33,718 nt of DNA from Dehalococcoidales bacterium (GTDB taxonomy: Bacteria > Chloroflexota > Dehalococcoidia > Dehalococcoidales > E44-bin46): assembly GCA_036481135.1 (NCBI GenBank), contig JAZGHN010000071.1:1-33718 (forward strand), written 5' to 3'. Shown piece after piece: positions 15,426 to 33,718 of this stretch. The position numbers were made by a program, and so were the translations under genes. The notes beneath the pieces were generated by a model. The model searched no databases, had not been told where the DNA came from, and was given only the letters and a program-made list of their open reading frames with translations. The stretch's first letter is position 1. Each line of letters begins with the position of its first letter.

Positions 15426-15968
15426 TTAAGGCCACTCAGGTTCGAGGGTGTTCTGGTATGCAGTTATCAGGTCATTACGTTTCATTATTATTGTGTCGCT
15501 TCTGATTTCATATGGAACTGACGCCTTAGGGAAATCCACACAGGCTCCTTTAATTCCGTCGCCAGTTTTTGCTTTAAATGTAGTCGCACAAGTGTCACAC
15601 ACGAGAATGTCTTTTTGGAGGGAAAAGCCCACTGACCAACAGGGTGGACAAACGTTAGAACGCACATAGATCTTCCCGTCCAGTTCATAGGCCATGAAAG
15701 CTATGTCCCCTGATGGTCCTCTTCCTAACAGAAAGTGGACCAGTTTGTTGTTATTCACCTCACTTACTGAAATGGATAGGGTATCACCGTCTGCCTGGAC
15801 GGCAACCCATGTAGCCCTTATTGGTTCACTATTGCTGGGTTCACTATTGCTACTGCACCCCACCACGCTTAGTATGACCGCGAGCAATACCACGCCTGTT
15901 AATATTACCCCTGACAGGCATTGCATCCCCATTCTGCTTTTAATGAAGCGTTTACTTAATGGATTCAT
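15426..15968 (-). CDS. DUF2318-like (FtrD/Rieske-like) Fe-S-binding lipoprotein
   Basis: Hydrophobic segment ending LSVVGC; CPPC...LVCDTCATTF...GAC..FP cysteine pattern; start uncertain (15968 or a downstream ATG). Confidence 0.72.
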   Translation of the reverse strand: MNPLSKRFIKSRMGMQCLSGVILTGVVLLAVILSVVGCSSNSEPSNSEPIRATWVAVQADGDTLSISVSEVNNNKLVHFLLGRGPSGDIAFMAYELDGKIYVRSNVCPPCWSVGFSLQKDILVCDTCATTFKAKTGDGIKGACVDFPKASVPYEIRSDTIIMKRNDLITAYQNTLEPEWP

Positions 15969-16009
15969 TTTGTTTAATATCCCCCTACCGACTCTTCGCC
16001 TCAATATTG

Positions 16010-17628: not shown

Positions 17629-17636
17629 TCACCACC

Positions 17637-18827: not shown

Positions 18828-18839
18828 TTCCTAGCTCCG

Positions 18840-19982: not shown

Positions 19983-20048
19983 ATTCCCTCTCCTTCACTA
20001 AACTCCTTTTCAATTAAAGTGTTAAACAAGCCAGCCTTTCCTTCCTAA

Positions 20049-21062
20049 TCATATACTCGTTGCATTGGGGTAAAGTCCCTGGAAAAGCCAGGTACTTAGA
20101 TAGCGTTCACCAGTATCGGGCAGAACTACCACTATGAGCTTACCCTCATTTTCCCGTCTTCTGGCTACCTTTAGTGCTGCCCAGGCTGCTGCCCCCGAGG
20201 ATATACCAGCCAGTATCCCCTCCTCCTTGGCAAGCCTTCTTGCTGTATTTCCGGCGTCTTCGTTGGTGACCTTAATAATCTCGTCGACTAAATCTGTCCT
20301 CAACACATCAGGGACGAAGCCAGCCCCAATACCCTGAATTTTGTGGGACCCTGGCTTCCCTCCGGAAAGAACCGGGGAATCAGTGGGCTCAACAGCGATG
20401 GCTCTAAATTCAGGCTTCCTCTTCTTTATCACCTCAGTCACCCCGGTAATTGTTCCTCCCGTTCCTACCCCAGAGACCAGAATATCTACCTTGCCCTCGG
20501 TATCTCTCCAGATCTCCTCGGCTGTGGTCAGCCGGTGCACCTCTGGATTTGACGGGTTCTTAAACTGCTGGGGCATAAAGTAATTGGAGTTTTCCGCCAC
20601 CAATTGCTCGGCTTTCCTTACTGCTCCCGGCATCCCCTCTGCCCCCGGCGTTAGCACCAGCTCGGCACCGAAAATTGCTAGGAGCTGTCTCCGCTCCATT
20701 GACATGGTGTCAGGCATGGTGAGGAGCAGCTTGTATCCCCTGGTGGCGCAGACAAAGGCTAGAGCGATGCCAGTGTTGCCGCTGGTAGGCTCAACAATAA
20801 CCGTATCCTTATCAATCAGCCCCCTCTCCTCAGCCTCAACAATCATCGACATCCCAATGCGATCCTTGACACTTCCCAGAGGATTAAAGGACTCAAGCTT
20901 AGCTATAACCTCTGCTTTTGCCCCCTCGGTTATTCGGTTCAGTTTGACCAGAGGTGTATTTCCGATTAGCTCAGTAGAGTCCTTGGCTATGCCTCTGGTT
21001 AGCTTAGGTATCTCTATCGTCTTATACTGAAGTCTCTCTACTTTCTGAGTTATCTTTGCCAC
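20049..21062 (-). CDS. cysK: Cysteine synthase A (O-acetylserine sulfhydrylase)
   Basis: [48 protein letters not shown] and [10 protein letters not shown]; GTG start with AGGAGG SD. Confidence 0.96.
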
Positions 21063-21184
21063 TTTAATTTCCTCCTTATATTAATCTTATAACCGGTTAC
21101 AAACCGGCCCTCTGTTTTCTCGATTATCTGCTCTCCGTCGGTATATTTGTCCAAGACGGCGTAAACCTTTATCGTTACACTCAT
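21050..21184 (-). pseudogene. 44-aa ORF with a MoaD/ThiS-like N-terminus, lacking the rest of the beta-grasp fold and the C-terminal GG
   Basis: [52 protein letters not shown]; the first ~22 residues resemble MoaD-family N-termini. Confidence 0.5.
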
Positions 21185-21222
21185 TTTTTCTCCTTATTGA
21201 TTGGTAAATGCCCGCAGTAAAT

Positions 21223-21666
21223 TCATATGTGGTACATGGTCGCTCCAGACTGCCTCTTCATCTTTTGCCGCTCAACCAGATCCTGCAGGGTTGTCGATTG
21301 CAGGACTCCGTTGATTGCTCTCTTTATTTCCCCCCAAACATCCCGGGTGACACACGAGGCAGAGCGGGGACATATCTCTGGATTAGTGACGCACTCCGCC
21401 GGGGCAATTGAGCCCTCAAGCAGTTGGATGACTTCGACCAGCTTTATCTCCTCAGGTGGTTTAGCTAACGAGATTCCACCCTTGGCGCCCCGAGTGCTTC
21501 GTACTATGCCCTTGGCTATCAGGGGAGTGATCAAATGCTCCAGGTAGGGCAGTGAAATCTCCTGCCTTTGGGCGATGTCTTTTAATAGAACAGGCTCCTC
21601 ATCGTGGTGAAGGGCCAAATCCAATAGTGCCCTGGTGGCATATCGTCCTCTAGTAGAGAGCCTCAT
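21223..21666 (-). CDS. Rrf2-family transcriptional regulator (IscR/CymR-like, three C-terminal Cys)
   Basis: MRLSTRGRYATRALLDLA, IAQRQEISLPYLEHL, STRGAKGG and ECV....CPRSASCVTRDVW. Confidence 0.95.
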   Translation of the reverse strand: MRLSTRGRYATRALLDLALHHDEEPVLLKDIAQRQEISLPYLEHLITPLIAKGIVRSTRGAKGGISLAKPPEEIKLVEVIQLLEGSIAPAECVTNPEICPRSASCVTRDVWGEIKRAINGVLQSTTLQDLVERQKMKRQSGATMYHI

Positions 21667-21678
21667 TGGCGCCTCCTT

Positions 21679-21699
21679 TGTTGACTATTATGACCAACA
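21679..21699. promoter_or_regulatory. Putative Rrf2/IscR type-1-like operator
   Basis: Imperfect palindrome TGTTGACTATTATGACCAACA between the promoter and the SD of the Rrf2 gene. Confidence 0.6.
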
Positions 21700-21705
21700 T
21701 AGTAT

Positions 21706-21734
21706 ACATTATCATGCTAAAGATAGGCTGTCAA
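21706..21734 (-). promoter_or_regulatory. Sigma70-type promoter of the Rrf2-cysK operon
   Basis: Minus strand TTGACA (21734-21729), 17 nt, TAATGT (21711-21706); GATAAT and TATACT are alternative -10 elements nearby. Confidence 0.6.
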
Positions 21735-21771
21735 TAGTACTTCGGTACTTCTTTAATCGTGACTGCTCAGT

Positions 21772-21874
21772 ATGCCATACAAAAAACAAGGAAGACAGAA
21801 CGGCTGCCGTGAGACGCCATAGGGATAGGAAAAGGGATGAGCAGCGGGCAACAGCAAGGGGCTGCAAAGATTGA
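21772..21874 (+). pseudogene. Possible frameshifted remnant of a small basic phage/MGE-type ORF
   Basis: Removing one A from the A6 run gives MPYKNKEDRTAAVRRHRDRKRDEQRATARGCKD*. Confidence 0.3.
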
Positions 21875-22057
21875 GGCGAGTTAGTCTGCCTCTTGTATAA
21901 CAAAAGGGAGGGACACAATTCGCTATATTGTGCAATGGGTCGGTTCCACTTCAGGGAGAGGTCAGCGGCAACAGAACTCTCTTTGTTCTATATGCCTACA
22001 ACTCTTTGCTGAGGCTGAGTTAACAATAGATAGACGTAAATTAATAATCCAATATGG

Positions 22058-22375
22058 CTATCTTAACTTAATTCCCTGATTAGCTTCGACAGCTTCACTG
22101 GGGACTGCAGCCAGAATAATTGCCATTGTCAGGTATGAACTTGAAGCATTACCTCTATTGGCGCTTATGAGAAGACAACCATCCTTATACAAAACAAGAT
22201 AACTTTCATAAATACCCCACTTGCCATTGAACCGTACTGGAGTTTTTCTTTCAGCAGTGAACACACACTTTTCATCCACTTCTGTTATTGTGTTAGGACG
22301 ATTATAGGTAAGGCTGTAAATGGTTTTACCTTCAAGGTTTTTTATTCTTTGCCATAATTCATGTTTAGCCAGCAT
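22058..22375 (-). CDS. Hypothetical 105-aa protein (MLAKHELWQRIKNLEGKTIYSLT...), probably originally a separate gene
   Basis: Own GGAG SD before ATG 22375 and an upstream TATAAT; unrelated to the ferredoxin fold; looks more AT-rich by eye. Confidence 0.5.
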   Translation of the reverse strand: MLAKHELWQRIKNLEGKTIYSLTYNRPNTITEVDEKCVFTAERKTPVRFNGKWGIYESYLVLYKDGCLLISANRGNASSSYLTMAIILAAVPSEAVEANQGIKLR

Positions 22376-22915
22376 ATTGTTTTCACTCCAAACATCTGCT
22401 GAGCATCGCTCATTATAATACTCTCTGCACACCTTCTCTGCACACCTTTGCCTTTTCTGCTCTGAGAGTAAGTTTGGGTCTCCGAAAATGAGTGCCCCGG
22501 TAGGACAAACTTGTACGCAGGCAGGTAACAGCCCCTGGTCAATTCGCTCCACGCATAAGTCACACTTTTGCACTATGTTTTCCTCAGAAACAAACTGAGG
22601 GGCACCAAGGGGGCAGGCCTCAATGCACAGTTGACAACCGGTGCATTTCTCCTCATTGATGAGAACAATGCCATCGGAGCGCTTATAAATAGCACCCTCA
22701 GGGCAGGCTTCAATGCAAGCTGGCTTACCGCAATGCCTGCAGGCCATAGGCACAAAATCCATGACCAGCTTGCCCCCAATCCGGGTGGGTCCTACTTGTT
22801 TAACCTTGATAAAGTGTGGTCCCACACCAAGCTGGTGCTCCTGCTTGCAAGCCACCTCACAGGAAAAACAACCGTAACAGAGCTCCATATCAACTAAAAG
22901 TGATTTCTTTCCCAT
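22058..22915 (-). CDS. DmsB/NrfC-like 4x[4Fe-4S] electron-transfer subunit, read through in frame into an unrelated C-terminal region
   Basis: CYGCFSCEVAC, CRHCGKPACIEACP, CTGCQLCIEACP and KCDLC...PACVQVCPTGALIFGD; start ATG 22915, 1 nt after the upstream stop. Confidence 0.88.
   Translation of the reverse strand: MGKKSLLVDMELCYGCFSCEVACKQEHQLGVGPHFIKVKQVGPTRIGGKLVMDFVPMACRHCGKPACIEACPEGAIYKRSDGIVLINEEKCTGCQLCIEACPLGAPQFVSEENIVQKCDLCVERIDQGLLPACVQVCPTGALIFGDPNLLSEQKRQRCAEKVCREYYNERCSADVWSENNMLAKHELWQRIKNLEGKTIYSLTYNRPNTITEVDEKCVFTAERKTPVRFNGKWGIYESYLVLYKDGCLLISANRGNASSSYLTMAIILAAVPSEAVEANQGIKLR
22423..22448. repeat. Perfect 13-bp tandem duplication CTCTGCACACCTT x2
   Basis: Copies at 22423-22435 and 22436-22448, read directly from the sequence. 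Confidence 0.95.
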
Positions 22916-22916
22916 C

Positions 22917-25088
22917 TCAATCCTCTTCCACCCTATAAACTTTACATAGAAGACCCCTAAGTGAAACGGCACCACTCACCGGCTCGTAAGGTGGGTCATT
23001 GGTCGCAATGATATTTATATTGGACTCGGACCAGCCATGCAGAGGGTCCTCTTTGTTCTCTGGGTACCACCAGTGCGATGGTGCCGCAACTACCCGAGGG
23101 TCGACTGCCTCAGTTACCTCTGCTTTCATCTTCACCCGGCCTCTATCCTTTGGTGCCTCAATCCAGACCCAATCGCCGTCCCTGATATCAAGACCGGCAG
23201 CTGTCTGGGGATGGATTTGCACCCTGGGATACGGCTCCAGTTCCCTGCACCAGGGCACCTGTCTGCCGCTAGAGTGGAAATAGGCCACATGCCTGTGCCC
23301 AGTAGTTAGGACAAGGGGATAATCCCTGGCTATCTCTGGAGTAGAAAACGGCGTCTCTTGGTTATCCTTATAGTAGGGCAATGGGTCCTCGCCAGCCACC
23401 TCCTTGGTTAGACTGGCAACGAGCTCCACCTTGCCCGAGGAAGTCTTGAATCCACCCTCTTCCTCATATTTCTTGTATCGGGTAGGCTGAACCATAAAAT
23501 GGTGCTTCTTAAGCTCCTCATAGGTGATGCCAATTCCACTGAGGGTATAGTCATGGAATTGAGCAACCGTCTTCCACTGCTTGGGTAGCTCCAATCCCAT
23601 GCGCTTGATTATCTCTAAGTCCATTTCCCGGTCCTCCATAGTGTCATAGACCGGCTCAATAACCCTCTCCCTGGCGGCAACCATATTATTATACATCGCA
23701 AACTCTATCCCATCCTTCTCCAGATAGGTGTGGGGTGGCATGATTATATCACACATCTCCATAGTGGGGTTCATAAAGAAACAAGAACCTACCGAGAACT
23801 CTAGCTTCTTTAATGCTTCCATTGTTTCCTTGGCACCCTCAAGACAGAGTAGCAGGTCATTCACCGCCCAGTTGGCTTTTACTGGATAGGGCTTGCCGGT
23901 AATGATGGCGTGAATCACACTGGGAGGATGACAAAGACCTCCGACTATGGACTTTGAGCTGGCGAAAAGGGGAAATTCCTTGGCACCAATGCGTTTGTCA
24001 GCTACTTCCGGAGGAAAAGGCAAGGCTTCATGCTCAATGTGTACCTTAGTTTTAAAGCCTTGGTAGACGCTACCCATAATGAGCCCCCCCTTTACATCCA
24101 GATTGCCACAGATAGCCGCCATAATGGCCATGGCACGGATTGTCTGGTGGACGTTGAAATTCATCTGAACCCCCATGCGGGTATGCATCGCAGCTCCTGG
24201 ACTGTTGGTAGCATACATACGGGCAGCACTGATGATGTCCTCTTCGGAGACCCAAGTTACCTCCGATACCCAGCTAGGAGGATATTCCTGAACACGCTGC
24301 CTTAGTTCAGAAAAGCCAACACACCACTTATCCACAAATTCCTTATCATAGAGTCCCTCATTGATAATGACATTCAGCATGCCCAGTGCAAGGGCATCGT
24401 CAGCACTCGGTCTGACCTGAAGGAAAATGTCTGCCTTGGAGGCGATTTCACAGAAGCGGGGGTCAACCACAATTAGCTTGGCCCCCTTCTTTTTGCCGAT
24501 CATAATGTCCCGTGCTCGTGTTGGGTGTGACATTACTGGATTGCCCCCCCAGAGCATAATACACCGGCTATTTCGGTAGTCAGGTCCTACTTCCGAGGTC
24601 AATGATTCACCGAAGGTAACACGATTAGCCATAATCATAGGGGTATAGCAGTAATGAGCATCGGAGTGAAACCAGGTTGGGCTCCCCATGGCATGGAGCC
24701 AAGTCAATTTGAAAATATTTTTAAAGTCATGGAAGCCGTGGTCCCCATAGGAGCAGGTAATAGATTCCGGGCCCCATTTGTCCATAATCTCCTTGAACCT
24801 AGAGGCAACAGTGTTCAGCGCCTCATCCCAAGAGATACGCTGCCACTTGCCCCCTCCCCTCTCTCCAGTCCGTTTCATCGGGTATTTAATGCGGTCAGGG
24901 TGATAGAGAACCTGGGTAACTGCCAGCCCCTTGGGACACATGGTCCCCTCGTTCTGAGGGAAATCAGGGTCACCCTCAACCTTGACCACCCTGCCATCCT
25001 TAACATAAGCTAAAACCCCGCAGCAACCATGACAGCGATCACAAATAGTTGAAACAACCTCCGTGCCATCACTGAGTTTTCGTCTCAT
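22917..25088 (-). CDS. Cytoplasmic Mo/W-bisPGD oxidoreductase catalytic subunit (DMSO reductase family, acetylene-hydratase-like clade)
   Basis: CDRCHGCC...MCPKG N-terminal Fe-S motif, HPDRIKYP, ISWDEAL, WGGNP, VVDPR and C-terminal FHS...IHP..A..I.DGDWV; no Tat signal; 723 aa. Confidence 0.9.
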   Translation of the reverse strand: MRRKLSDGTEVVSTICDRCHGCCGVLAYVKDGRVVKVEGDPDFPQNEGTMCPKGLAVTQVLYHPDRIKYPMKRTGERGGGKWQRISWDEALNTVASRFKEIMDKWGPESITCSYGDHGFHDFKNIFKLTWLHAMGSPTWFHSDAHYCYTPMIMANRVTFGESLTSEVGPDYRNSRCIMLWGGNPVMSHPTRARDIMIGKKKGAKLIVVDPRFCEIASKADIFLQVRPSADDALALGMLNVIINEGLYDKEFVDKWCVGFSELRQRVQEYPPSWVSEVTWVSEEDIISAARMYATNSPGAAMHTRMGVQMNFNVHQTIRAMAIMAAICGNLDVKGGLIMGSVYQGFKTKVHIEHEALPFPPEVADKRIGAKEFPLFASSKSIVGGLCHPPSVIHAIITGKPYPVKANWAVNDLLLCLEGAKETMEALKKLEFSVGSCFFMNPTMEMCDIIMPPHTYLEKDGIEFAMYNNMVAARERVIEPVYDTMEDREMDLEIIKRMGLELPKQWKTVAQFHDYTLSGIGITYEELKKHHFMVQPTRYKKYEEEGGFKTSSGKVELVASLTKEVAGEDPLPYYKDNQETPFSTPEIARDYPLVLTTGHRHVAYFHSSGRQVPWCRELEPYPRVQIHPQTAAGLDIRDGDWVWIEAPKDRGRVKMKAEVTEAVDPRVVAAPSHWWYPENKEDPLHGWSESNINIIATNDPPYEPVSGAVSLRGLLCKVYRVEED

Positions 25089-25118
25089 TCTCCAACCTCC
25101 TTTCTCCCTTTAATTATT

Positions 25119-26519
25119 TCAGTCGGGCGGTGCTGGTTTGAGAGTATCCCCCGTGGATAACAAACTGGTTAGCCCATAAATACTTTCCCCGATGCCCAAT
25201 GACCTTACTCTAGATATGACTTGGTTCCTTCTATTTTCAGAAAAAACGCGAGAGGACAGGTTGTTGAACTTCAGTATCAGTTCCTCCCAAGAGAGGGGAT
25301 TCTCCGGATCTCCCTTAGGGTAGTCAATCCTCGTTGAGAATTTCCTGCCATCCTTTGTGGCTATCTCTACGCTGGCTGGCCAATGTTTCGGGTAGACCTT
25401 CTCTAATTCAGCATCCGCTACACAAGAGACCCTGCCCATCATCTCTTTCACTTCGCTTGACTCTAAGTTGTCTGCCGTATACTCATCCAAGGAGACGCTC
25501 CCATAAAGAACAGCAACGGCAGCGCCAAACGGCATACTAAACTGAGCATCAACTACCGTCCGAGGATTATATTTCAATTCCTTAGGCTCCACAATTATGG
25601 GAAAACCAGCTTTCAATATCCCTAGGGTGACCTTCTCCACCTCCTGTGCCTTCAGTTTGTTCTCCTTTATAAGCTTTAGGATGCCATCGATCGGACCCTG
25701 TTCATACCGGCAGCACGCATAGGGCTTTACACTGACTCTCATAATTTTGAAAGGGTCGCCAAGCCCAGCAAGAAGCTTTTCAAGGTCGAAATCATCGGAA
25801 TAAGCATGGAGAAAACCAAATCTGCCCTCCACTACAGTGGTGGGCCCCTTAAAGCCCCCTTTTGCTAAAAGAGCTGCTATCATGCCATTGTGAGCCGCCC
25901 ACCCCGCATGTAGTGGCTTGGTCCAAGTACCACTAGTCAGATACTCCATGACCCCTGCTGCCTGGCTGCCCGCAATACCCAAAGCACTGAGCGTCTGTCC
26001 CTCATCAAGGTTAAGTATCTTCGACGCTGCTGTGGCTGCCCCAAATGTGCCACAGGTGCCGGTAGGGTGAAAGCCTCGAGCATAGTGGCTAGCAGGATTC
26101 AAAGCCTTGCCCAATTGAACCATGACTTCATAGCCTGATACTACGGCTTCTATAAATTTCTTCTCATCACACCCCGTCAGCTCAGCCATGGCAAAGGCGG
26201 CTGGGAAGATTGCCACCCCAACATGGGCAGATGACTCGTTACTTAGATCATCCAGTTCCAAGGAATGTGATGATGTACCGTTAGCTAGAGCTGCATACTG
26301 ATAAGGTGCTCTCATGCTTGTCCCAATAATTACGCCCCCTTCACAGCCCATATCCTTAGCAAAATTGCGCACAATTTCAGCCTGCTTTGTTAAGGTTCCC
26401 CGCACTGCCACACCGAGGAAGTCTAAAGCGAAGTATCTGACCCTACCAACAACGTCACGAGAAAGGTCTTCATAACTCAGGCTACTGCAAAACTTTGCCA
26501 ATTCCCTAGTGGCGCCCAT
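25119..26519 (-). CDS. MmgE/PrpD family protein
   Basis: AALANGTSSHSLELDD, AHVG, GYEV, GFHPTG, KPLHAG, KPYACCRY, AQFS.PF and PKGDPENP; probable start ATG 26519 after AGGAGG. Confidence 0.92.
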   Translation of the reverse strand: MGATRELAKFCSSLSYEDLSRDVVGRVRYFALDFLGVAVRGTLTKQAEIVRNFAKDMGCEGGVIIGTSMRAPYQYAALANGTSSHSLELDDLSNESSAHVGVAIFPAAFAMAELTGCDEKKFIEAVVSGYEVMVQLGKALNPASHYARGFHPTGTCGTFGAATAASKILNLDEGQTLSALGIAGSQAAGVMEYLTSGTWTKPLHAGWAAHNGMIAALLAKGGFKGPTTVVEGRFGFLHAYSDDFDLEKLLAGLGDPFKIMRVSVKPYACCRYEQGPIDGILKLIKENKLKAQEVEKVTLGILKAGFPIIVEPKELKYNPRTVVDAQFSMPFGAAVAVLYGSVSLDEYTADNLESSEVKEMMGRVSCVADAELEKVYPKHWPASVEIATKDGRKFSTRIDYPKGDPENPLSWEELILKFNNLSSRVFSENRRNQVISRVRSLGIGESIYGLTSLLSTGDTLKPAPPD

Positions 26520-26565
26520 CTTCCACCTCCTTAAATTGTCTCTCATCGCTTGATGCACACTATCC

Positions 26566-27411
26566 TTAAAGAATTGCTACTTTCTGCCGAGCACACCAGC
26601 ACTGTATGTTAACCGCCACCGGCAAGCTTGCGATGTGGCTCGGAAAAACCTCAACATGAACAGCCAGAGCTGTGGCTCTGCCACCATATCCTACTGGCCC
26701 AATACCTAGCCTATTTACTCGCTTGAGAATTTCCGTCTCCAGCTCAGCGACCTCAGCATCCGGATTGGGCTCACCTACTCTACGTAATAAGGCTCGCTTA
26801 GCCAGCATAATAGTCTTTTCCACCGTGCCGCCTATGCCGACACCAACAATGTGCGGAGGACACGGATTACTTCCCGCCTCGTCTACAGCGTTGACCACAA
26901 AATCTATAACCCCTTGACGACCTTGCGCCGGAGGTAGCATAGCTAGGCGAGCCATATTCTCAGAGCCAGCACCCTTAGGAAGAGCAACGATTTTGAGCTT
27001 ATCACCAGGGACAATATCGGTATGAATCATAGAAGGGGTATTATCACCAGTGTTGGTTCTAGCAGAAAAAGGCTGACTCACTATAGACTTACGTAGATAG
27101 CCCTCGGCATATCCCTGCCGCACTCCTTCATTTATTGCGCAATAGATGTCACCCCCGACTACGTGGATATCTTGCCCTATCTCAAGGAAGACTACTGCGA
27201 CTCCTGTGTCTCCGCATATAGGGATTTGCTCCTTAGCTGAGATATTGACATTCTCTATTATTCTGTCTAGCACATTACACCCGATAGGTGATTCCTCTGT
27301 CTGACGTGCTTGCTTGAGGGCATTCAGCACATCTTCTGGAAGATAGTAGCAAGCTTCTTGAAAGAGTTGCGATACTGCCTTGGTTATTTCCTTGACATCA
27401 ATCTCTCTCAT
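26566..27411 (-). CDS. Fe-S hydro-lyase alpha subunit (class I fumarase/L-tartrate dehydratase type)
   Basis: PICGDTG, GYLRKS, NTGDNTP, KGAGSEN, NPCPP..GVGIGG, GYGG, HIASLPVAVN and QCW. Confidence 0.92.
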   Translation of the reverse strand: MREIDVKEITKAVSQLFQEACYYLPEDVLNALKQARQTEESPIGCNVLDRIIENVNISAKEQIPICGDTGVAVVFLEIGQDIHVVGGDIYCAINEGVRQGYAEGYLRKSIVSQPFSARTNTGDNTPSMIHTDIVPGDKLKIVALPKGAGSENMARLAMLPPAQGRQGVIDFVVNAVDEAGSNPCPPHIVGVGIGGTVEKTIMLAKRALLRRVGEPNPDAEVAELETEILKRVNRLGIGPVGYGGRATALAVHVEVFPSHIASLPVAVNIQCWCARQKVAIL

Positions 27412-27956
27412 ATTCTATACCTAGTTTTTCCCTCCTCATAAAGGTCTCCACCATAGATATCATTTATCACGGTGACTGGAAAATCTTCTATTTCCAAGCG
27501 ACGGATTGCCTGAGGCCCAAGATCCTCATAAGCTATTACCTCTGACTTCTTAACCCTCTTAGAGAGAAGAGCCCCACAACCAGCAACCCCCGCAAAATAC
27601 ACTGCTTTATATTTCTTCATAGCCTCCCTTACCTCCGGGGAACGCATCCCTTTACCAATCATCCCTTTAAGTCCCTCAGCTATTAAGCGGGGTGAGTAGC
27701 TGTCCATACGACCACTGGTAGTAGGGCTAGTCGATCCAATTGGCTTCCCTGGCCTAGCAGGGGTGGGACCCATAAAGAATATCGTCTGCCCCTTAATATC
27801 AAACGGTAAGAGCCTTCCTTGATCCAGAGCCTCAACCATTCTTTGATGGCTAGCGTCTCGAGCCACATATACTACGCCAGTAAGTAAAACATCATCTCCA
27901 GCTTTAAGGTCTTCCAAGATTTCATCAGTCAACGGAAGCACAATCTTCTTAGTCAT
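27408..27956 (-). CDS. Fe-S hydro-lyase beta subunit (class I fumarase/L-tartrate dehydratase type)
   Basis: ARDASH, GPTP, PTTSGRMD, MIGKG, YEDLG and D.YGGDLY. Confidence 0.92.
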   Translation of the reverse strand: MTKKIVLPLTDEILEDLKAGDDVLLTGVVYVARDASHQRMVEALDQGRLLPFDIKGQTIFFMGPTPARPGKPIGSTSPTTSGRMDSYSPRLIAEGLKGMIGKGMRSPEVREAMKKYKAVYFAGVAGCGALLSKRVKKSEVIAYEDLGPQAIRRLEIEDFPVTVINDIYGGDLYEEGKTRYRI

Positions 27957-28002
27957 TAGCCCACCTAACCTTATAGTTAAACTTCAGCAGAGCCTCGCTA
28001 GC

Positions 28003-28278
28003 TTACCAGGCGTTTCTCCAAATACGCTTAACATCATCCAGGGTAAGTTTCTTCGGGTTATTTGCTAGGAGCCGAGTCACATCCATACTAGCTACAGCCA
28101 GCTCTTCTAAAGCTTCTTTAGGTACTCCCAAGCCCCGTAGACGGAGGGGAATAGTAATATCTTCAGCCAGAGCCTTAAACGCCTCTACTCCTTTTCCTGC
28201 CGCCTCTTGAAAAGAGAGACCCTGCGTATTGACCCCTAGCATTTGGGCAATGGCGACATACTTAGGCAAGTTATAGAC
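28003..28278 (-). pseudogene. C-terminal fragment of an iron-containing alcohol dehydrogenase
   Basis: KY..IA.MLG......EAA...VEA...L..DI.IP.RLR.LGV...L......RLLANNPK matches the Fe-ADH C-terminus; N-terminal domain absent; no clear SD. Confidence 0.75.
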
Positions 28279-29172
28279 TTATAGGAGGGGGCTCTCGTCT
28301 TCCTCCTCAGCAATGAACTCTACTAGGCGTACCAGATCCTTGGCCTGCTTGTAGTTCATATAATCTATCATTTTACCTTCGAAGGATATTGCTCCTAGCC
28401 CTCTGGCTTGAGCTTCCTCAAAAGCTTCAACCACTCTTCTCGCATATTCAGCCTCATCCGGCAATGGTGAGAACGCTTTGTTCACTGGCTCTATTTGCGT
28501 TGGATGGATAAGCAGCTTGCCTTTAAACCCTAGCTGTAAAGCCAGCATCATCTCCTTCATAAAACCCTCTCTGTCAGTCAAAAGCCCAAAGAATACTGTG
28601 TCTATGGCTTGAACCCCAGCCGCAACGCTACAATTTACTATCCGAGAGCGGGCATATAGGAGTTCAGTCTGCTCTGGGGAAAAGGAGGCACCTCGTCCCA
28701 GATCCCTATAATAATCCCCAGCTCCGAAAGCAACGGCAATTATGCGCTCACTTGCCGAGGCGATTTCATAAGCATTAATTACACCCTTGGCCGACTCGAT
28801 TAATGGTACTACCTTTAAACTTCGCGGCTCTAATCCCCCACCTTTCTCAGTCTCCTCAAGCATACTGTCTAACTCTACTATGTCAGACTTAGTCTCACTC
28901 TTTGCCAGCATTAAGCCATCTAAACCCTCAACGGCAACAAACTTTAAGTCCTCAGCCGTCAAATTAGTGGTAAGGGCATTCACCCGTACAAATACATAAC
29001 TTCCTCCAAGTTTAACATCTTTGATAGAGTCCCTAATCATGATTCTTGCTGTTGCTTTGTCAGGTAAGGGTACGGCATCTTCTAAGTCAAGTATAATGGC
29101 ATCTGCCGGTAGGGTAGCTGCCTTAGCAATCATCCGCATGCTATTCCCGGGGACGAAGAGCATAGACCTCAA
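28279..29172 (-). CDS. CitE/HpcH-HpaI family CoA-ester lyase (citryl-/malyl-/citramalyl-CoA lyase-like)
   Basis: RSMLFVPG, ILDLEDAV, VRVN, LIESAKG, FGAGDY, GFKGK..IHP.QI and GKMID. Confidence 0.9.
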   Translation of the reverse strand: MRSMLFVPGNSMRMIAKAATLPADAIILDLEDAVPLPDKATARIMIRDSIKDVKLGGSYVFVRVNALTTNLTAEDLKFVAVEGLDGLMLAKSETKSDIVELDSMLEETEKGGGLEPRSLKVVPLIESAKGVINAYEIASASERIIAVAFGAGDYYRDLGRGASFSPEQTELLYARSRIVNCSVAAGVQAIDTVFFGLLTDREGFMKEMMLALQLGFKGKLLIHPTQIEPVNKAFSPLPDEAEYARRVVEAFEEAQARGLGAISFEGKMIDYMNYKQAKDLVRLVEFIAEEEDESPLL

Positions 29173-29174
29173 AA

Positions 29175-30080
29175 CTATGGCGCACCCCCCTTTAAGATTC
29201 TCACCAAACTAGCTGCTATATCTTGAGGATGTTCTACGACATGTGCCCCAGCTTCTTCCAAGGCTCTAATCTTGCTTTCGGCTGTCCCTCTACCCGCTTC
29301 AATTATAGCGCTGGCGTGGGAAAACCTCATGCCAGACGGTAGACCCCTACCGGCTATGTACGCCACAAGGGGTTTAGTAAATCGACCCTCCTTTATGACT
29401 TCAGCCGCCTCCTCTTCGGCTACTGTGCCTATCTCGCCGAATAGAACTACAGCTTTAGTGTCCTTATCATCCTCAAACAGGGGGAGTATCTCGGCAAAGC
29501 TCGAACCGACAATTGGCTCTGAGCCAACATGCAACGCGGTCGTCGTTCCGATTCCAGCCTTCATCAAACTCCAAACCACGGTACTTGTCTGCCCTCCACT
29601 CCGCGACATCACTCCAACCGACCCGGGCTTAAAGATTTCCCGAGCAAACTCCTCAGCTCCACCAAGCCAACCCATGGCTGCCTTTCCTGAACTGAGGAGA
29701 CCAAGGGAACCTGGACCAAGTATGCGAGCTCCTTCCCGACGAGCCAGTGCAATCATCTCCAGGCTATCATGTAATGGCACCCGTTCGGCAGGAACCACTA
29801 TGAATCTTATCCCTGACTCTATGGCTTCTATAGCTGCTTCCTTAACCTGCGGGCCGGGCACAAAGGTCACACTGGCATCTATGGGACCGAATTCTCTAGT
29901 AGCCTCTTTCACACTATTAAACACGGGGACTCCCCAGACCTCGTTGCCTCCCCGCCCCGGGGTTACCCCACCCGGTATCTTGGTGCCGTAACCAAGCATA
30001 AATCTTGTCCTGGCACTTCCTTCCCTGCCAGTTATTCCCTGAACTAACACCGTAGTATTTACATCTATGAGTATAGCCAT
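29175..30080 (-). CDS. Succinyl-CoA synthetase alpha-like subunit (CoA-binding, phospho-His)
   Basis: VLVQGITGREG, GGVTPGRGG, SRSGG, FGEIG..EE.AA, KPLVAYIAG and RFSHASAII (catalytic His). Confidence 0.9.
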   Translation of the reverse strand: MAILIDVNTTVLVQGITGREGSARTRFMLGYGTKIPGGVTPGRGGNEVWGVPVFNSVKEATREFGPIDASVTFVPGPQVKEAAIEAIESGIRFIVVPAERVPLHDSLEMIALARREGARILGPGSLGLLSSGKAAMGWLGGAEEFAREIFKPGSVGVMSRSGGQTSTVVWSLMKAGIGTTTALHVGSEPIVGSSFAEILPLFEDDKDTKAVVLFGEIGTVAEEEAAEVIKEGRFTKPLVAYIAGRGLPSGMRFSHASAIIEAGRGTAESKIRALEEAGAHVVEHPQDIAASLVRILKGGAP

Positions 30081-30100
30081 GTTTCCATCATACCTCTATA

Positions 30101-30388
30101 CTAGCTCAGCCCAACTTTATGTTTATATTCCTCTAGCCCAAACGTGTCAAGGACAATTTGCAGGCCTTTATTACCATAGGACTGGCAGTAAAGCTCGCAC
30201 GTTAGGTCTTCAATGCAGCGTTTATTAGCGCCCTCACTAACTAATATGGGTTTACCATCTTCAACTCGTAGTATCGCCCTGCCAAAAAGGCTACACGCCT
30301 TAACACAGTCGTAACTCTCACAGTCTTTACACTGTTCATAATCAACGATAACCTTACCTGTGGCAAAAGGAAATTCATAAACCGCCAT
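30101..30388 (-). CDS. Small ferredoxin-like protein
   Basis: CKDCESYDCVKAC and CIEDLTCELYC, two degenerate [4Fe-4S]-type motifs; GGAGGG SD. Confidence 0.7.
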   Translation of the reverse strand: MAVYEFPFATGKVIVDYEQCKDCESYDCVKACSLFGRAILRVEDGKPILVSEGANKRCIEDLTCELYCQSYGNKGLQIVLDTFGLEEYKHKVGLS

Positions 30389-30404
30389 ACCAATTTTGTC
30401 CCTC

Positions 30405-31655
30405 CTAATTGCTTCTGTACTCCTCTATCAGCTTCTTCATACGCTCGGCAATGTAATCAACATTGTAGACATAGTCACGCCCATATATCTCCACCTTGGC
30501 AGGGAGACCCCTGAGTCCCTCACTCAGTATTTCCAAGGACTCTGTCTCCTTATTTCCGGCTATTAAGATTATTACCGGGAAGTTTGGCCTGCTTACTAAT
30601 TCTTCTCGTAGAGCCCTAACCAAGGCATGGGCATGGTGCCATTGCTCCTGATTAGCGATACAAGCCCCCATTAAAACATAGCCATCGATATTGGGCTGGG
30701 AAAAGATAAGCTTAACTACACGATATACCTTAGCTGCGGTTGGATTACCACTGGTGTCGGCGTAGTTGGCTAGCTTAACTCCATGTCGTATTAAGGCATC
30801 AGCACCAAGCATAGCTCCACCCCCACCAATGCCATGGAATCCAACCACGCCCTCTCCCGGTCTGAACTCCCGAGTCATCTGAACAAAGTAGCCTACCCCA
30901 CGGTAATCTTTCTTCTCTATCTCCCAGGCGAGTTGCTCAAGTTCGGTAGGCGCCCGACCAATATCACGGGGATAATCTATCTCAAGCTCCGGGTGCTTAA
31001 ATACTGAAGCTTCATCGATTACTATATGGCAATCGGCAGCGTAAACCTTACCGTCCTCGGTCAAGACTATAGGGTTCGCCTCAACGCTGCGGGCACTGTA
31101 TTTTCTAAATACCTCATATAGCCCATGGACTATCTTACTCAGCGGCTCTAATAAAGGTGATGAAACACTAAGCTTTGAGAGCAAGCCTCTCGTTTGCTCA
31201 ATTGTTAAACCCTTAAGAACATCAACGTTCATACTTATTACCTTCTCAGGAAACTGAGCGGCAATTTCCTCTATCCCGGTGCCACCTTTAGTGCTGAACA
31301 TTAAAACCGGCCCTTTAACCTTCCAAGAATCGTTTACAATTACACTGGCATAGAATTCGTCTTTAATAGGTAACTTTTCCTCCACCAGAACCTTCTCCAC
31401 TTTCAGCCCTTTGACCACTGTACCGAGCAATTCTTGAGCGACCTTTTCTGCTTCGTCAGCCTTGTTCGCAAACTTTATGCCGCCGGCTTCGAAGCGGCCA
31501 GTGACGCCAACCTGCGCCTTGATCGCCACCGGTTTCCCTAAGCTTTTGGCTATCCTACGCGCCTCCTCAGGCACGACGGCAACATCACCTTTGGGTATGG
31601 CAATGCCACATTCCCTTAGCAATCTCTTCGCCTGATATTCATGAATCTTGGACAT
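30405..31655 (-). CDS. Divergent succinyl-CoA synthetase beta / ATP-citrate lyase-like ATP-grasp subunit
   Basis: HEYQAK, KAQV..GR..AGGIK, VLVEE, GG..IEE and E.NP; ACL-like C-domain motifs GGGGAM, LANYADTSGNP and IANQ. Confidence 0.88.
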   Translation of the reverse strand: MSKIHEYQAKRLLRECGIAIPKGDVAVVPEEARRIAKSLGKPVAIKAQVGVTGRFEAGGIKFANKADEAEKVAQELLGTVVKGLKVEKVLVEEKLPIKDEFYASVIVNDSWKVKGPVLMFSTKGGTGIEEIAAQFPEKVISMNVDVLKGLTIEQTRGLLSKLSVSSPLLEPLSKIVHGLYEVFRKYSARSVEANPIVLTEDGKVYAADCHIVIDEASVFKHPELEIDYPRDIGRAPTELEQLAWEIEKKDYRGVGYFVQMTREFRPGEGVVGFHGIGGGGAMLGADALIRHGVKLANYADTSGNPTAAKVYRVVKLIFSQPNIDGYVLMGACIANQEQWHHAHALVRALREELVSRPNFPVIILIAGNKETESLEILSEGLRGLPAKVEIYGRDYVYNVDYIAERMKKLIEEYRSN

Positions 31656-31817
31656 TGAACCTCCAAAAGTTATCTAAGACGACTGTGTTTAGGCCCAGCT
31701 ACAACTGAACCTAGTAAGGCTCGAAAGGTAGCCCAGCTATTTGTTAGCATGTATTTGGGAATGCCATGTAACTATCTGTTTGGAGCCTTTAGCCACCGAA
31801 TTCCCTAATAATTTTGT

Positions 31818-31840
31818 AAAAACTCCTGCTGAAGCGGAGT
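31818..31840 (-). terminator. Rho-independent terminator after the cupin gene
   Basis: Minus strand ACTCCGC-TTCA-GCAGGAGT-TTTT, 15 nt after the stop. Confidence 0.6.
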
Positions 31841-31855
31841 AAGCAGGTCTATCGT

Positions 31856-32161
31856 TTACTTAAATTCAGCCATTGGTGGATAAAATACGTCAATGGTGAT
31901 GGTGTCCTCTATGCCTTCTACCGAATGCTCACTTTGGCTGGGGACAAAATAGCCTTGCCCTTCTTCATATATTCTAGATTTTCCATCCACAATCATTAAA
32001 GCTTTTCCGCGCACAACATAGCCTATCTGCTCAGAATGATGAGAGTGTTTCTCAACGACTACGCCTCTGTCCATATGGATCTCACACATCATCAAACTAT
32101 CCGAGCAGTTTAATGTTTTCCTTGTATGCCCCGGCTTGACTTTAATAAGTTTGTTTGACAT
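31856..32161 (-). CDS. Cupin domain protein
   Basis: HSHHSEQIGYVVRG and YFVPSQSEH metal-binding motifs, then DVFYPP. Confidence 0.9.
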   Translation of the reverse strand: MSNKLIKVKPGHTRKTLNCSDSLMMCEIHMDRGVVVEKHSHHSEQIGYVVRGKALMIVDGKSRIYEEGQGYFVPSQSEHSVEGIEDTITIDVFYPPMAEFK

Positions 32162-32170
32162 GTTAAGCTT

Positions 32171-32680
32171 TTAGATTTCTTCCCCAAATTCTTCAAGGAG
32201 GATCTCGATAGTCCAACGTGCTGTATTAGCAACAACCTCGGGACATTTAGTGGTGTGAGCACCAGCCTTCTCAAAGTCTTTAAACTCCTTTTCGTCCCAA
32301 AGATCATAGCGGCGGCCAAAGATTTTTTTATGGACTTCATTACAAATACAAGTTCCATACTCATCCTTGAACCGTTCTATAAGTCTCTTGGATGGCTTGT
32401 ATTGGTCGAAGGATCCAGGAGTTGCATTGTAGTAATTCTCTTTATTGCGACCCAACTTAGTCCCGATAAGCATAATTCCAGCAGCAAGCGCGCCACATGT
32501 GCCTTCTGTCGTTACGGCTATTCCGCCGGTTAATCCGTGGGAAGCCTTGAAAAGGCGGTCGTCTATCAAACCCAGATGTTCATTTATTGCGGCTAAAAGA
32601 GACTGGGAACAGTTTCCGTGTTTCCCTTCGTTTTTATAAGCACTTTGGTAAATTTTCTCAAGCAAGTCTTCTCTTTCCAT
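32171..32680 (-). CDS. C_GCAxxG_C_C family putative redox-active protein
   Basis: NCSQS, GLTGG, TCGALAAG, GTCIC and KCPEVV. Confidence 0.9.
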   Translation of the reverse strand: MEREDLLEKIYQSAYKNEGKHGNCSQSLLAAINEHLGLIDDRLFKASHGLTGGIAVTTEGTCGALAAGIMLIGTKLGRNKENYYNATPGSFDQYKPSKRLIERFKDEYGTCICNEVHKKIFGRRYDLWDEKEFKDFEKAGAHTTKCPEVVANTARWTIEILLEEFGEEI

Positions 32681-32684: not shown

Positions 32685-33718
32685 TTATAATCCCCAGCCG
32701 GCTCTCAAAGCACTTGTTATTTGACTCACTGCCTCTGATTCAGATTTCGTAGTCTCTTTTTTACTCTTTTTTTGCGACCAGACTGTCTCATTTCTTGTTT
32801 GAAGTATGAATATACTATCGGGGAATTGTTGTCCTTTTGAGATAGCCCATTCAATGTCCTGTGGAGTCCCATAGTGATTTTCAATTTTTTTTGCCAGCTT
32901 GCCTAAGTATATTGCTTCAATCTCATTCAAACAAGGCTTATTCTTTTCTTTATCCTCGGCTTTCCTTTGCACAATTCCACCATCAGGATTGATCACGGTA
33001 CTAACTTCTTTTACAGATACATCTACTCTTATTACTTCGAGAGGCTCTTTTTTCAATAAAATCCTATCCGGTGTCACAGAACCCGATACCAATGATTCGC
33101 CAAGCCCCCAATTCCCCTCAATGAAGATTTTATTTTCTTCCCCACTGACCGGATCCAGCGTAAACATCACCCCCGCCGTTCTGGGATTAATCATCTGTTG
33201 AACAGCTACGCAAACTCCTGCGTTCCTATACCCTATTCCCTTAACGGCACGATATTTAATTATTCTCGGTCCAAAAAGACTACTCCAGCATTTCTTAACA
33301 GTTTTCAATAGTGCCTCTTCATCATTGACATTCAGAAAGGTATCGAATTGCCCGGCAAAACTCGCATCAGCTGAATCCTCTTGTGTGCCACTACTGCGAA
33401 CAGCGGCAGCCCTGATGAATTTTTCCTTACCCATGAGTTCATTATACGCCTTTTTGATCTCCCCACTTATTTCATCTGGAATTTTGGCTTGCTCAACAAT
33501 ACTCCGTATCCTCTTTGATGCCTCACTGATTCTATCCGTATCGGATAAATCCTTCTGCAGATTTTCCATTATCACATCTATACTATCATCTATATCTGTA
33601 GCTTGAATGAGTTTTATGTAAGCCTGAGTAGTTATTGCAAATCCATCAGGAACCGGAATACCTATGGATCTCAATTCCCCTAGGTTAGCGCATTTCCCCC
33701 CCACAAGAGCTACATCCG
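32685..33718 (-). CDS. Stand-alone PEP/pyruvate-binding (PPDK_N) protein, phenylphosphate synthase beta-like; 5' end outside the window
   Basis: Frame is open to the window edge (DVALVGGKCANLGEL); VPDGF, AVRSS..EDS..ASFAGQ, VQQM, GVMFT, GLGE.LVSG, PQDIEW and LQTR.ETVWS; stops before any phospho-His domain. Confidence 0.9.
   Translation of the reverse strand, partial: DVALVGGKCANLGELRSIGIPVPDGFAITTQAYIKLIQATDIDDSIDVIMENLQKDLSDTDRISEASKRIRSIVEQAKIPDEISGEIKKAYNELMGKEKFIRAAAVRSSGTQEDSADASFAGQFDTFLNVNDEEALLKTVKKCWSSLFGPRIIKYRAVKGIGYRNAGVCVAVQQMINPRTAGVMFTLDPVSGEENKIFIEGNWGLGESLVSGSVTPDRILLKKEPLEVIRVDVSVKEVSTVINPDGGIVQRKAEDKEKNKPCLNEIEAIYLGKLAKKIENHYGTPQDIEWAISKGQQFPDSIFILQTRNETVWSQKKSKKETTKSESEAVSQITSALRAGWGL

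Follow-up and report, generated by a model that had tools for sequence, protein, structure and literature searches.

An anaerobic route through malyl-CoA is known from physiology and enzyme evidence in a few isolates, in work that dates from the 1990s. Passages of two papers state that glyoxylate or glycolate is broken down by way of malyl-CoA in Syntrophobotulus glycolicus and Moorella (PMC8092247, PMC6313629). The S. glycolicus genome paper gives glyoxylate, or glycolate in syntrophic co-culture, as sole carbon sources, and mentions neither malyl, succinyl-CoA, malic enzyme nor citrate lyase. Described relatives of the enzymes concerned here are MtkAB with the malyl-CoA lyase Mcl, citryl-CoA synthetase (CcsAB) with ATP-citrate lyase (ACL), and succinyl-CoA synthetase (SCS; SucCD). 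In this work we analysed a stretch of 33,718 nucleotides (nt) from a Dehalococcoidales bacterium (GenBank assembly GCA_036481135.1, contig JAZGHN010000071.1, positions 1 to 33,718 of the forward strand), called the window in what follows. Its minus strand carries genes for a SucC-like ligase beta subunit, a Cys-rich ferredoxin-like protein, a SucD-like ligase alpha subunit and a CitE-superfamily acyl-CoA lyase. We lean, on balance and with restrained confidence, towards reading these four genes, by analogy, as an ATP-forming malyl-CoA synthetase of three parts and a malyl-CoA lyase of the anaerobic malyl-CoA pathway. The initial annotation of the region had proposed an undescribed pathway; for the four genes, however, the malyl-CoA route has already been described biochemically in anaerobes, as passages of the two papers above indicate (PMC8092247, PMC6313629).

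The conserved four-gene core

The minus strand holds all long open reading frames (ORFs) of the window. Ten of them are packed tightly between 31655 and 22058, with spacings that range from a few overlapping bases up to 46 nt, and the run is flanked by a 200-nt gap upstream and a 390-nt gap downstream. The first four encode the ligase beta subunit (30405..31655, minus strand, 416 aa; ATP-grasp_2 176 bits and Citrate_bind 36.3 bits, cut-off 26.8), the Cys-rich protein (30101..30388, minus strand, 95 aa; without family match), the ligase alpha subunit (29175..30080, minus strand, 301 aa; TIGR01019 297 bits, under the cut-off of 353) and the lyase (28279..29172, minus strand, 297 aa; HpcH_HpaI 191 bits). 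Domain calls were made from Pfam and NCBIfam profile scores, and the cut-offs of the NCBIfam equivalog models were used for the identity tests. The initial annotation had described a co-oriented, tightly spaced run of ten genes with the domains given here and below, and the ORF list and the profile scores bear this out.

For the survey of related loci we used one genome per species, which gave 31 loci with a relative of the beta subunit (46-82% identity), and compared every ORF in them with the window proteins. These loci belong to Dehalococcoidia, other Chloroflexota, Bathyarchaeia, Nezhaarchaeota, other Thermoproteota, Planctomycetes, a Methanomassiliicoccales metagenome-assembled genome and Desulfosporosinus paludis, a cultured Firmicute. 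The Cys-rich protein is present in 30 of the 31 loci, the sole miss being L025, whose contig ends inside beta. The alpha subunit is present in 29 loci, with both misses at contig ends, and the CitE-like lyase in 25, with four of the six misses at contig ends, which upholds the proposed pairing of the ligase with a CoA-ester lyase. In two Dehalococcoidales loci (L010, 11579-14447, and L011, 9008-10694) the lyase is replaced by a gene for an enoyl-CoA hydratase, which lies on the opposite strand; in these loci the ligase may belong to a different CoA-ester pathway. The other genes of the run recur less often: a PrpD-like protein in 12/31 loci (26-43% identity), the hydro-lyase alpha subunit (FumA) in three, its beta subunit (FumB) in two, the pair of Mo alpha and beta subunits in two (24-25% and 37-39% identity), and the alcohol dehydrogenase (ADH) fragment in one, where it is distant from the core; in no locus does it stand beside the core. 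These counts show that the conserved unit consists of beta, the Cys-rich protein, alpha and the lyase, and not of the full ten-gene run. The earlier interpretation was right about a ligase distinct from SucCD, its pairing with a lyase and an altered hydro-lyase, but co-conservation of all ten genes was not found, with PrpD-like, FumA and the Mo pair as rare as stated, and its choice of citramalate or methylcitrate as the substrate is not retained either.

The ferredoxin-like protein had been passed over as a passenger. It is instead the most consistently linked extra gene: in 23 loci it stands on its own between the genes for beta and alpha, and in seven (six archaeal and one Planctomycete) it is fused to the C-terminus of beta. 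Among 31 aligned rows Cys20, Cys23, Cys28, Cys64 and Cys68 are invariant, position 32 is Cys in 24 rows and Asp in the remainder, and position 58 is Cys in 28. The pattern reads Cx2Cx4Cx3C...Cx5Cx3C, and neither the two CxxCxxCxxxCP motifs of a 2x[4Fe-4S] ferredoxin nor a Pfam Fer4 match was found in it. Searches of Pfam and NCBIfam gave no match and a sequence search of the PDB gave nothing under E = 0.2; the Atlas labels the clusters of this protein '4Fe-4S ferredoxin-type'. A 19-member profile searched against 1.84 billion representative proteins had 152 matches at E <= 1e-3, 77 of them at E <= 1e-10. The long hits that match once, at the C-terminus, number 12 (413-541 aa), and every one of them is a beta fusion with a SucC-type ATP-grasp_2 domain; three shorter fragments carry Citrate_bind, and two weak multi-stretch hits are unrelated. 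The AlphaFold model of the protein has a predicted local distance difference test score (pLDDT) of 78. A fold search with this model gave no match at E <= 0.001, and the best weak ones, nearly all ferredoxin-type domains, are for lack of significance a weak lead only.

We also modelled the Cys-rich protein together with beta. The complex scored 0.79 (median of three runs) and the best of three controls 0.00, with a contact agreement of at least 95% and a partner pLDDT of at least 89. Among solved complexes 116 of 157 attain a score of 0.79, and among mismatched pairs 2 of 215, counts that hold only roughly here because author-made alignments were used. On the beta side the predicted interface comprises residues 238-250, 306-321 and 339-347, the last of which is the family-specific WHHAH helix directly after the ANQEQ loop. 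Residues 59-66 and 80-94 of the Cys-rich protein are predicted to face 306-321 and 339-347 of beta. The Cys-rich protein is probably a third subunit of the ligase, which docks on beta or is fused to it, and judging by its conserved cysteines it would hold an Fe-S cluster. To our knowledge there is no precedent for an SCS-fold ligase with an Fe-S subunit, and we know of no solved complex of that type.

Relationships and probable substrate of the ligase and lyase

The beta subunit carries the motifs GGGGAM, LANYADTSGNP and CIANQE, and its C-terminal domain also reads GIGGGGAM, ANQEQWHHAH and GNKE. In the HMMER alignments, 'gngagl' of Thermus SucC stands opposite 'giggggam' of beta, 'aianft' of Chlorobium AclB opposite 'cianqe', and 'ianyaeysgdp' of AclB opposite the ANYADTSGNP stretch. 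The initial annotation had pointed to the missing GNGAGL motif of SucC, to GGGGAM and LANYxxxSGxP as ACL-like motifs, and to CIANQE in place of the citrate-binding loop SIANFT of ACL; all three motifs are present and the alignments agree with it. The C-terminal-domain motifs (GIGGGGAM, ANYADTSGNP, ANQEQWHHAH and GNKE) are invariant or nearly so in two family alignments, and ANQEQWHHA(H/N), ANYADTSGNP and GN(K/R)E are common to both clades of beta described below. The best 120 database clusters are 72-98% identical to the window beta, which on these identities is a member of a large and tightly conserved family.

A maximum-likelihood tree of beta was built from 45 rows, namely the window, 28 of the 31 loci (the partial loci L009, L019 and L025 were excluded), 10 database proteins and six outgroups (four SucC and two MtkA from E. 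coli and plasmids, without CcsA/AclB). The 39 beta-family rows are monophyletic with a support of 100/100 and sit on a long branch apart from the four SucC and two MtkA, so that beta falls outside canonical SucC and MtkA. MtkA groups with the proteobacterial SucC, outside the beta family. Two clades can be seen inside the family, a Firmicute/Actinobacterial one with nine rows and a Chloroflexota/archaeal one with 30; the window beta is nested among Dehalococcoidia in the latter, with L017 as its nearest relative (82% identity). The profile scores point the same way. Beta reaches 233.1 bits with the SucC equivalog NF001913 (cut-off 370), 222.6 bits with TIGR01016 (cut-off 375.55) and 157.9 bits with the MtkA equivalog NF010647 (cut-off 604), and it is 27-30% identical to plasmid MtkA. 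With SucC and MtkA scores under the cut-offs and a clade of its own, the claim that the ligase is not a canonical SucCD stands.

An ordinary succinyl-CoA synthetase which happens to lie beside unrelated genes is the least probable of the readings we weighed, and we consider it highly improbable. Such a reading would account for alpha, which from its sequence is clearly SucD-like (285 bits to 2yv2, a solved succinyl-CoA synthetase/ligase alpha chain, 178 bits to the small subunit of citryl-CoA synthetase and 133 bits to ACL alpha), and for the SucC-like N-terminal half of beta, whose whole length is nearest to Thermus SucC among the solved chains (197 bits) and then to the H. thermophilus citryl-CoA synthetase (135 bits). 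Many sources label the protein succinyl-CoA synthetase. However, the equivalog cut-offs of SucC and SucD are both missed, GNGAGL is replaced in beta, the family forms a separate long-branch clade, and the link to the lyase and the Fe-S protein is obligate across Bacteria and Archaea.

The functional anchor of our interpretation lies in the Firmicutes. A search with the D. paludis beta found orthologues in S. glycolicus DSM 8271 (86% identity), in Moorella thermoacetica and Neomoorella (72-74%), and in other Desulfosporosinus too. The gene order in D. paludis (L027) is an IclR/BhcR-like regulator, a GlcF-like Fe-S protein, a GlcD/E-like protein, GlcD (494 bits, cut-off 568), beta, the Fe-S protein, alpha, the lyase and an NADP-type malic enzyme. 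We take this gene set to be the enzyme set of the published malyl-CoA pathway, whose enzyme activities were reportedly measured by Friedrich and Schink and by Sakai et al. Because the Firmicute branch occurs in S. glycolicus and Moorella, and because the D. paludis copy stands in a context of glycolate genes and malic enzyme, a malyl-CoA synthetase with a malyl-CoA lyase is the best reading of the core. Malic enzyme lies near the core in L001 as well, directly after the lyase. Fumarase lies near it in the window and in L001, L012 and L028, and six loci in all have SdhA/FrdA or TfrA-like flavoproteins there, with a bona fide SdhA in L028 and L030. These recurrent neighbours are enzymes that produce or consume malate or fumarate. 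Liv-type ABC importers recur near the core in the Chloroflexota/archaeal clade. Our literature search, to which subscription journals were largely closed, yielded no paper that assigns genes to this ligase-lyase system and, for 'citryl-CoA synthetase' together with citE, none on a CitE-type partner. As a separate observation, the malic enzyme gene in the glycolate cluster of D. paludis is followed immediately by one for a group II intron reverse transcriptase/maturase (L027, 15284-16729).

In the proposed mechanism the lyase would interconvert acetyl-CoA plus glyoxylate and (S)-malyl-CoA, and the ligase would interconvert malyl-CoA, ADP and Pi with malate, CoA and ATP by the usual phospho-histidine route. 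Together they would make up, in strict anaerobes, an ATP-conserving 'malate synthase' that could run in either direction. The genes added to the core probably feed some dicarboxylate into it or draw malate from it. We infer the substrate of the ligase and the direction of flux from analogy; gene context and distribution argue for a malate-CoA ligase.

The lyase has the residues that such a reaction would call on. Its E31, D32, R63, E126, D153 and D270 correspond to Glu44, Asp45, Arg76, Glu141, Asp168 and the lid Asp299 of the R. sphaeroides malyl-CoA lyase (in the alignment, the chain index of 4l9y equals the native number plus 21), and all six catalytic and Mg-site residues of the CitE-like superfamily are therefore in place. 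These six residues are kept in CitE-like enzymes and in malate synthases, and the lid residue is Glu in thioesterases (PMC3832036). The window lyase stays under the cut-offs of the CitE equivalog TIGR01588 (256.8 bits, cut-off 443.4) and of RipC (162.8 bits, cut-off 375).

Several observations weigh against the malyl-CoA reading. Between the window beta and that of D. paludis, which fall in different sub-clades, identity is only 46%, and Pfam and NCBIfam scans found no glyoxylate-forming enzyme encoded in the window. The best solved match of the lyase is human CLYBL (152 bits), which we take to be a citramalyl-CoA lyase; it ranks above two malyl-CoA lyases (137 and 131 bits) and Deinococcus CitE (134 bits). 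The loop insertions of the MCLC/MCLR enzymes (MCLR residues 174-187) fall in gaps of the window lyase when it is aligned to 4l9y and 5ugr. With CLYBL nearest and the insertions absent, sequence alone leaves the 2-oxoacid substrate of the lyase unfixed. An SCS-type ligase reaction requires no Fe-S cluster, and for this reason the role of the Fe-S subunit is unexplained. Among the downstream genes treated in the next section, the hydro-lyase may not interconvert fumarate and malate, because a Gln has been lost from it, and the known substrates of MmgE/PrpD enzymes are tri- or tetracarboxylates, yet the family accompanies the core in 12/31 loci. Two further points come from beta itself. Its C-terminal domain taken alone scores slightly higher with citryl-CoA synthetase (44 bits) than with Thermus SucC (36 bits) or AclB (31 bits), and the Citrate_bind score expected of the beta part of citryl-CoA synthetase or ACL lies above its cut-off (36.3 against 26.8 bits).

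The last two points, like the GGGGAM and ANYxxxSGxP motifs that resemble those of ACL and citryl-CoA synthetase, would also suit a citrate system, in which a citryl-CoA synthetase and a CitE-type citryl-CoA lyase would form an analogue of ACL for a reductive or reversed tricarboxylic acid (TCA) cycle. CitE is the citryl-thioester lyase of citrate lyase, and TCA enzymes are found near the core in L028 and L030. We nevertheless regard a citrate system as very unlikely. The Arg-Arg of the H. thermophilus citryl-CoA synthetase ('vvrrngp') stands opposite L364-I365 of beta, a position where Arg presumably binds citrate in ACL. The ACL-type ATP-grasp profile Citrate_synth_N gives beta 39 bits, under its cut-off of 83, and the lyase gives 257 bits where the CitE equivalog TIGR01588 has a cut-off of 443. 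Aconitase, isocitrate dehydrogenase and 2-oxoglutarate synthase do not recur near the core, and the family occurs in S. glycolicus, which grows on glyoxylate or glycolate only.

Downstream genes and other neighbours

The genes downstream of the core are a lineage-specific extension of it. Scans of 21500-32300 for promoters and terminators stayed at chance level (17 promoter-like sites, with 13.6 +/- 3.9 in shuffles, and 8 terminator-like sites, with 9.5 +/- 2.9 in shuffles) and are uninformative on operon structure. Directly after the lyase lies an 88-aa C-terminal fragment of an Fe-ADH (28003..28269, minus strand), which covers positions 112-194 of the 194 of the ADH_Fe_C profile and positions 298-382 of the 382 of lactaldehyde reductase. 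It has no N-terminal part, as the CitE stop codon lies 9 nt upstream, and it is probably a gene remnant.

The next two genes encode a class I hydro-lyase, the beta subunit with a Fumerase_C domain (27408..27956, minus strand, 182 aa; NF005310 257 bits, cut-off 238) and the alpha subunit with a Fumerase domain (26566..27411, minus strand, 281 aa; NF004885 406 bits, cut-off 276). Both exceed the cut-offs of class I two-subunit fumarases, and the cluster cysteines C66, C184 and C271 of alpha are invariant. Alpha reads CGDTG, with Gly67 in place of Gln after the cluster ligand Cys66; CQDTG stands at this place in a Dehalococcoidia orthologue with 70% identity, in an archaeal copy, and in both TtdA and FumA of E. 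coli. Among the nearest alpha clusters (93-98% identity) 33/33 have the Gly, together with KGAGS, and in the next tier past an identity gap (76-80%) 85 of 87 clusters have Gln. The description of an altered hydro-lyase in the initial annotation was thus accurate, the change from CQDTG to CGDTG being fixed in all 33 near relatives. On the beta subunit R33, T79, T80, R83 and K102 are invariant in comparison with the C-terminal part of E. coli FumA, TtdB and archaeal FumB. Set against the malate-binding residues of the M. jannaschii fumarase (Gln61, Asp62, Arg102 and Gly147 of alpha; Arg32, Thr80, Thr81, Arg84 and Lys104 of beta), the window enzyme has Gly67 for Gln61 and keeps the others. Passages of a preprint place Gln61 within hydrogen-bonding distance of S-malate, list it among the active-site residues near the carboxyl groups and report that non-polar replacement inactivated the mutants (bioRxiv 10.1101/2022.09.03.506457). 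The Gly-type hydro-lyase may, to go by these residues, hydrate something other than fumarate. Five pairs of matches to beta and to the Gly-type FumA have equal longest-contig values (20507, 20736, 14071, 13984 and 66924), which suggests that the two genes share a contig in relatives whose beta is 86-97% identical.

The following gene encodes a 479-aa protein of the MmgE/PrpD family (25119..26558, minus strand), which had been called PrpD. Assignment to the family holds, as both the N- and the C-terminal Pfam domains are present, but the protein is not PrpD itself: its scores with the PrpD equivalogs are 42.3, 28 and 21.6 bits, far under the cut-offs of 458-950. Its nearest solved structures are iminodisuccinate (IDS) epimerase (166 bits), B. 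subtilis IRG1 (154 bits) and cis-aconitate decarboxylase (106 bits).

These two enzymes are what a branched-acid route would build on. The ligase would then activate (S)-citramalate or a substituted malate, the lyase would cleave citramalyl-CoA to pyruvate and acetyl-CoA, the hydro-lyase would hydrate mesaconate or citraconate, and the MmgE/PrpD protein would decarboxylate or isomerise aconitate. The fixed change from Gln to Gly, which widens the pocket of the hydro-lyase, would fit such a route, as would the nearness of the MmgE/PrpD protein to IDS epimerase and IRG1/cis-aconitate decarboxylase, the PrpD-like genes in 12/31 loci, and CLYBL as the best solved match of the lyase at 152 bits. 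We find it rather unlikely all the same. None of the 31 neighbourhoods has a glutamate mutase, a methylaspartase, a LeuCD-type enzyme or an itaconyl-CoA hydratase; what recurs there is malic enzyme, fumarase and Sdh/Frd. In its acid-binding motifs beta agrees with the Syntrophobotulus/Moorella clade, and the Gln-to-Gly hydro-lyase is limited to close relatives of the window. For the substrate we therefore depart from the initial annotation, which had suggested citramalate or methylcitrate: malate and glyoxylate are better supported, by the orthologues in S. glycolicus and Moorella and by the gene context in D. paludis.

The run ends with a Mo/W-bisPGD enzyme and a DmsB-like ferredoxin subunit. 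The former (22917..25088, minus strand, 723 aa) has an N-terminal Fe4S4 domain and matches acetylene hydratase (2e7z), its nearest solved relative, over the full length with 367 bits. Its C147 corresponds to the metal-ligand Cys141 of that enzyme, and His20 stands opposite the catalytic Asp13. Asp13, next to Cys12, is found only in the acetylene-hydratase subfamily, whose activity depends on it. C16-D17 of the window enzyme was considered as the counterpart of Cys12-Asp13 and rejected, given that the alignment sets His20 opposite Asp13. Since the Fe4S4 domain begins at residue 10, there is no room for a Tat leader and the enzyme is expected to be cytoplasmic. The DmsB-like subunit has four Cys groups (ORF 22058..22975, minus strand; Fer4_11 105 bits) and scores 140 bits with TIGR02951, under the cut-off of 214. 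Its start is probably the ATG at 22915, which gives 22058..22915. The initial annotation had ended this gene at 22376, where there is no stop codon; the ORF extends to 22058. Its 131-aa C-terminal extension (22061-22453, minus strand) has no Pfam match and no usable Atlas match, and could be a piece of some unrelated gene that became fused to this one.

A PrpD-like gene and a pair of Mo alpha and beta subunits are found near the core in the window and in two of the 31 loci, both from Bathyarchaeia, with Mo subunits that are only distantly related. In L016 (2746-7553 and 15473-19052) and L018 (2801-5063 and 17691-20686), genes for pyrogallol-transhydroxylase-like Mo alpha and beta subunits lie on both sides of the core. 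L016 has a full pair on each side, and the upstream pair of L018 is represented by the beta gene only within the analysed ORF set. In both loci the PrpD-like gene is next to the Mo genes on the upstream side, and the lyase gene is followed by one with a LUD domain. The layout nearest to that of the window is found in a Dehalococcoidia locus, L001 (13114-17980), where FumA is followed by two tandem pairs of a 240-aa Fe-S protein and a TfrA/NadB-like flavoprotein; these score about 290-312 bits, far under the cut-offs, and FumB was not detected in this locus. Two IorA/IorB-like families, present in four loci, were considered as a pyruvate:ferredoxin oxidoreductase of the pathway and rejected, as they are not adjacent to the core and have the domain order of the indolepyruvate type.

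One could also suppose that the core handles another 3-hydroxy-dicarboxylate or tricarboxylate, for example methylcitrate or beta-methylmalate, with the Fe-S subunit in a redox-linked step. This would give a part to a subunit whose role is otherwise unexplained, and it would suit the triad of PrpD-like protein, Mo alpha and four-cluster beta that adjoins the core in the window, L016 and L018, and the enoyl-CoA hydratase at the place of the lyase in L010 and L011. We consider it unlikely, for no particular substrate is positively supported and the glycolate route fully accounts for the context in D. paludis.

The remainder of the window contains further genes on the minus strand. At its edge (32685-33704) a 339-aa protein consists of the N-terminal ATP-binding domain of PEP synthase/PPDK alone, presumably like split phosphotransferases such as the phenylphosphate synthase subunit, and is followed by a C_GCAxxG_C_C protein (32171-32680) and a small cupin (31856-32161). 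A partner gene for it, if one exists, would have to be outside the window. Genes of the FdhD/NarQ family and with a MOSC domain lie at 9647-10881, about 12 kb from the Mo/W enzyme. FdhD is a sulfurtransferase that matures Mo-bisPGD formate dehydrogenases, and these genes may for that reason serve the acetylene-hydratase-clade enzyme. Downstream of the run, a sulfur/cysteine block (11282-21666) encodes an Rrf2/CymR-like regulator, CysK, cystathionine gamma-lyase/synthase, a MacB-type ABC pair, a redoxin, an FtrD-like protein, a ThrC-like protein, a NIL-domain protein, NifS, an ArsC/LMWP-like protein and a ferredoxin. Genes for cobalamin salvage and the lower ligand occupy 3-6333, with CobS, a CobT-like DBI_PRT protein, a CobC-like aminotransferase, CobD and a FecCD/Peripla_BP_2 ABC importer.

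Comparison with described systems

A wider proposal can be put forward, which we offer tentatively and regard as possible but doubtful in its entirety. There would be a widespread, as yet unrecognised class of three-subunit Fe-S acid-CoA ligases that form an ATP-conserving malate synthase together with a dedicated CitE lyase in Dehalococcoidia, Bathyarchaeia, Nezhaarchaeota, other Thermoproteota, Planctomycetes and Firmicutes. Placed beside the acid-binding loop, the Fe-S subunit would gate the ligase or put it under redox control, and the lineage of the window would have recruited the Gln-to-Gly hydro-lyase, the MmgE/PrpD enzyme and the W/Mo oxidoreductase of the acetylene-hydratase clade for a substrate outside the described pathways. 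If the assignment of the core is true, it would provide a genetic marker for the anaerobic malyl-CoA pathway. This marker would be common in uncultured subsurface groups, e.g. Dehalococcoidia and Bathyarchaeia, where the proteins are now annotated as succinyl-CoA synthetase or acetate-CoA ligase, and such mis-annotation would distort reconstructions of the TCA cycle and of C2 metabolism in these two groups. Within the family of class I fumarases and tartrate dehydratases, the clade of Gln-to-Gly hydro-lyases makes a concrete candidate for a novel specificity.

For two of the downstream enzymes a structurally known relative can be compared. The M. jannaschii fumarase (7xky) and the window hydro-lyase have in common the cluster cysteines, Asp68, Arg107, the second Gly of KGxGS, and the Arg, Thr-Thr, Arg and Lys of beta, whereas Gln61 of the former is Gly67 in the latter. 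Acetylene hydratase (2e7z) and the window Mo/W enzyme share the Fe4S4 Cys motif, the metal-ligand Cys and a cytoplasmic location. They differ in that Asp13 is replaced by His20 and in that the window enzyme has a four-cluster electron-transfer partner; as far as we know, acetylene hydratase has none.

As to the core, SucCD has the same fold and the same two core subunits as the window ligase, and SucD and SucC are what alpha and beta's ATP-grasp half resemble most. The C-terminal motifs of beta differ, however, and the window ligase comes with a predicted Fe-S subunit and an obligatory lyase. CcsAB and ACL have GGGG and ANYxxxSGxP-type motifs and a Citrate_bind match in common with the window beta's C-terminal domain. 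In contrast to them, the window beta has Leu-Ile for Arg-Arg, and the window alpha is much nearer to SucD (285 against 178 bits). Their partner lyase is of the citrate-synthase type, and the partner in the window is of the CitE type.

MtkAB with Mcl, of the serine cycle and the ethylmalonyl-CoA pathway, carries out the chemistry that we propose here, and in both systems an SCS-fold ligase adjoins a CitE-superfamily lyase. On an Aminobacter plasmid, for instance, a 'CoA ester lyase' gene adjoins mtkA, as in the core described here. However, MtkA from plasmids is 27-30% identical to the window beta and groups with SucC, outside the beta family. MtkAB lacks an Fe-S subunit, and the window lyase is without the Mcl-specific loop insertions. 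The malyl-CoA pathway of Syntrophobotulus and Moorella differs in that the window belongs to the Chloroflexota/archaeal sub-clade and has other neighbours, and an Fe-S subunit goes unmentioned in the passages on that pathway. Its organisms nevertheless carry the Firmicute branch of the same family, and in D. paludis the module lies between GlcD/F-like genes and malic enzyme.

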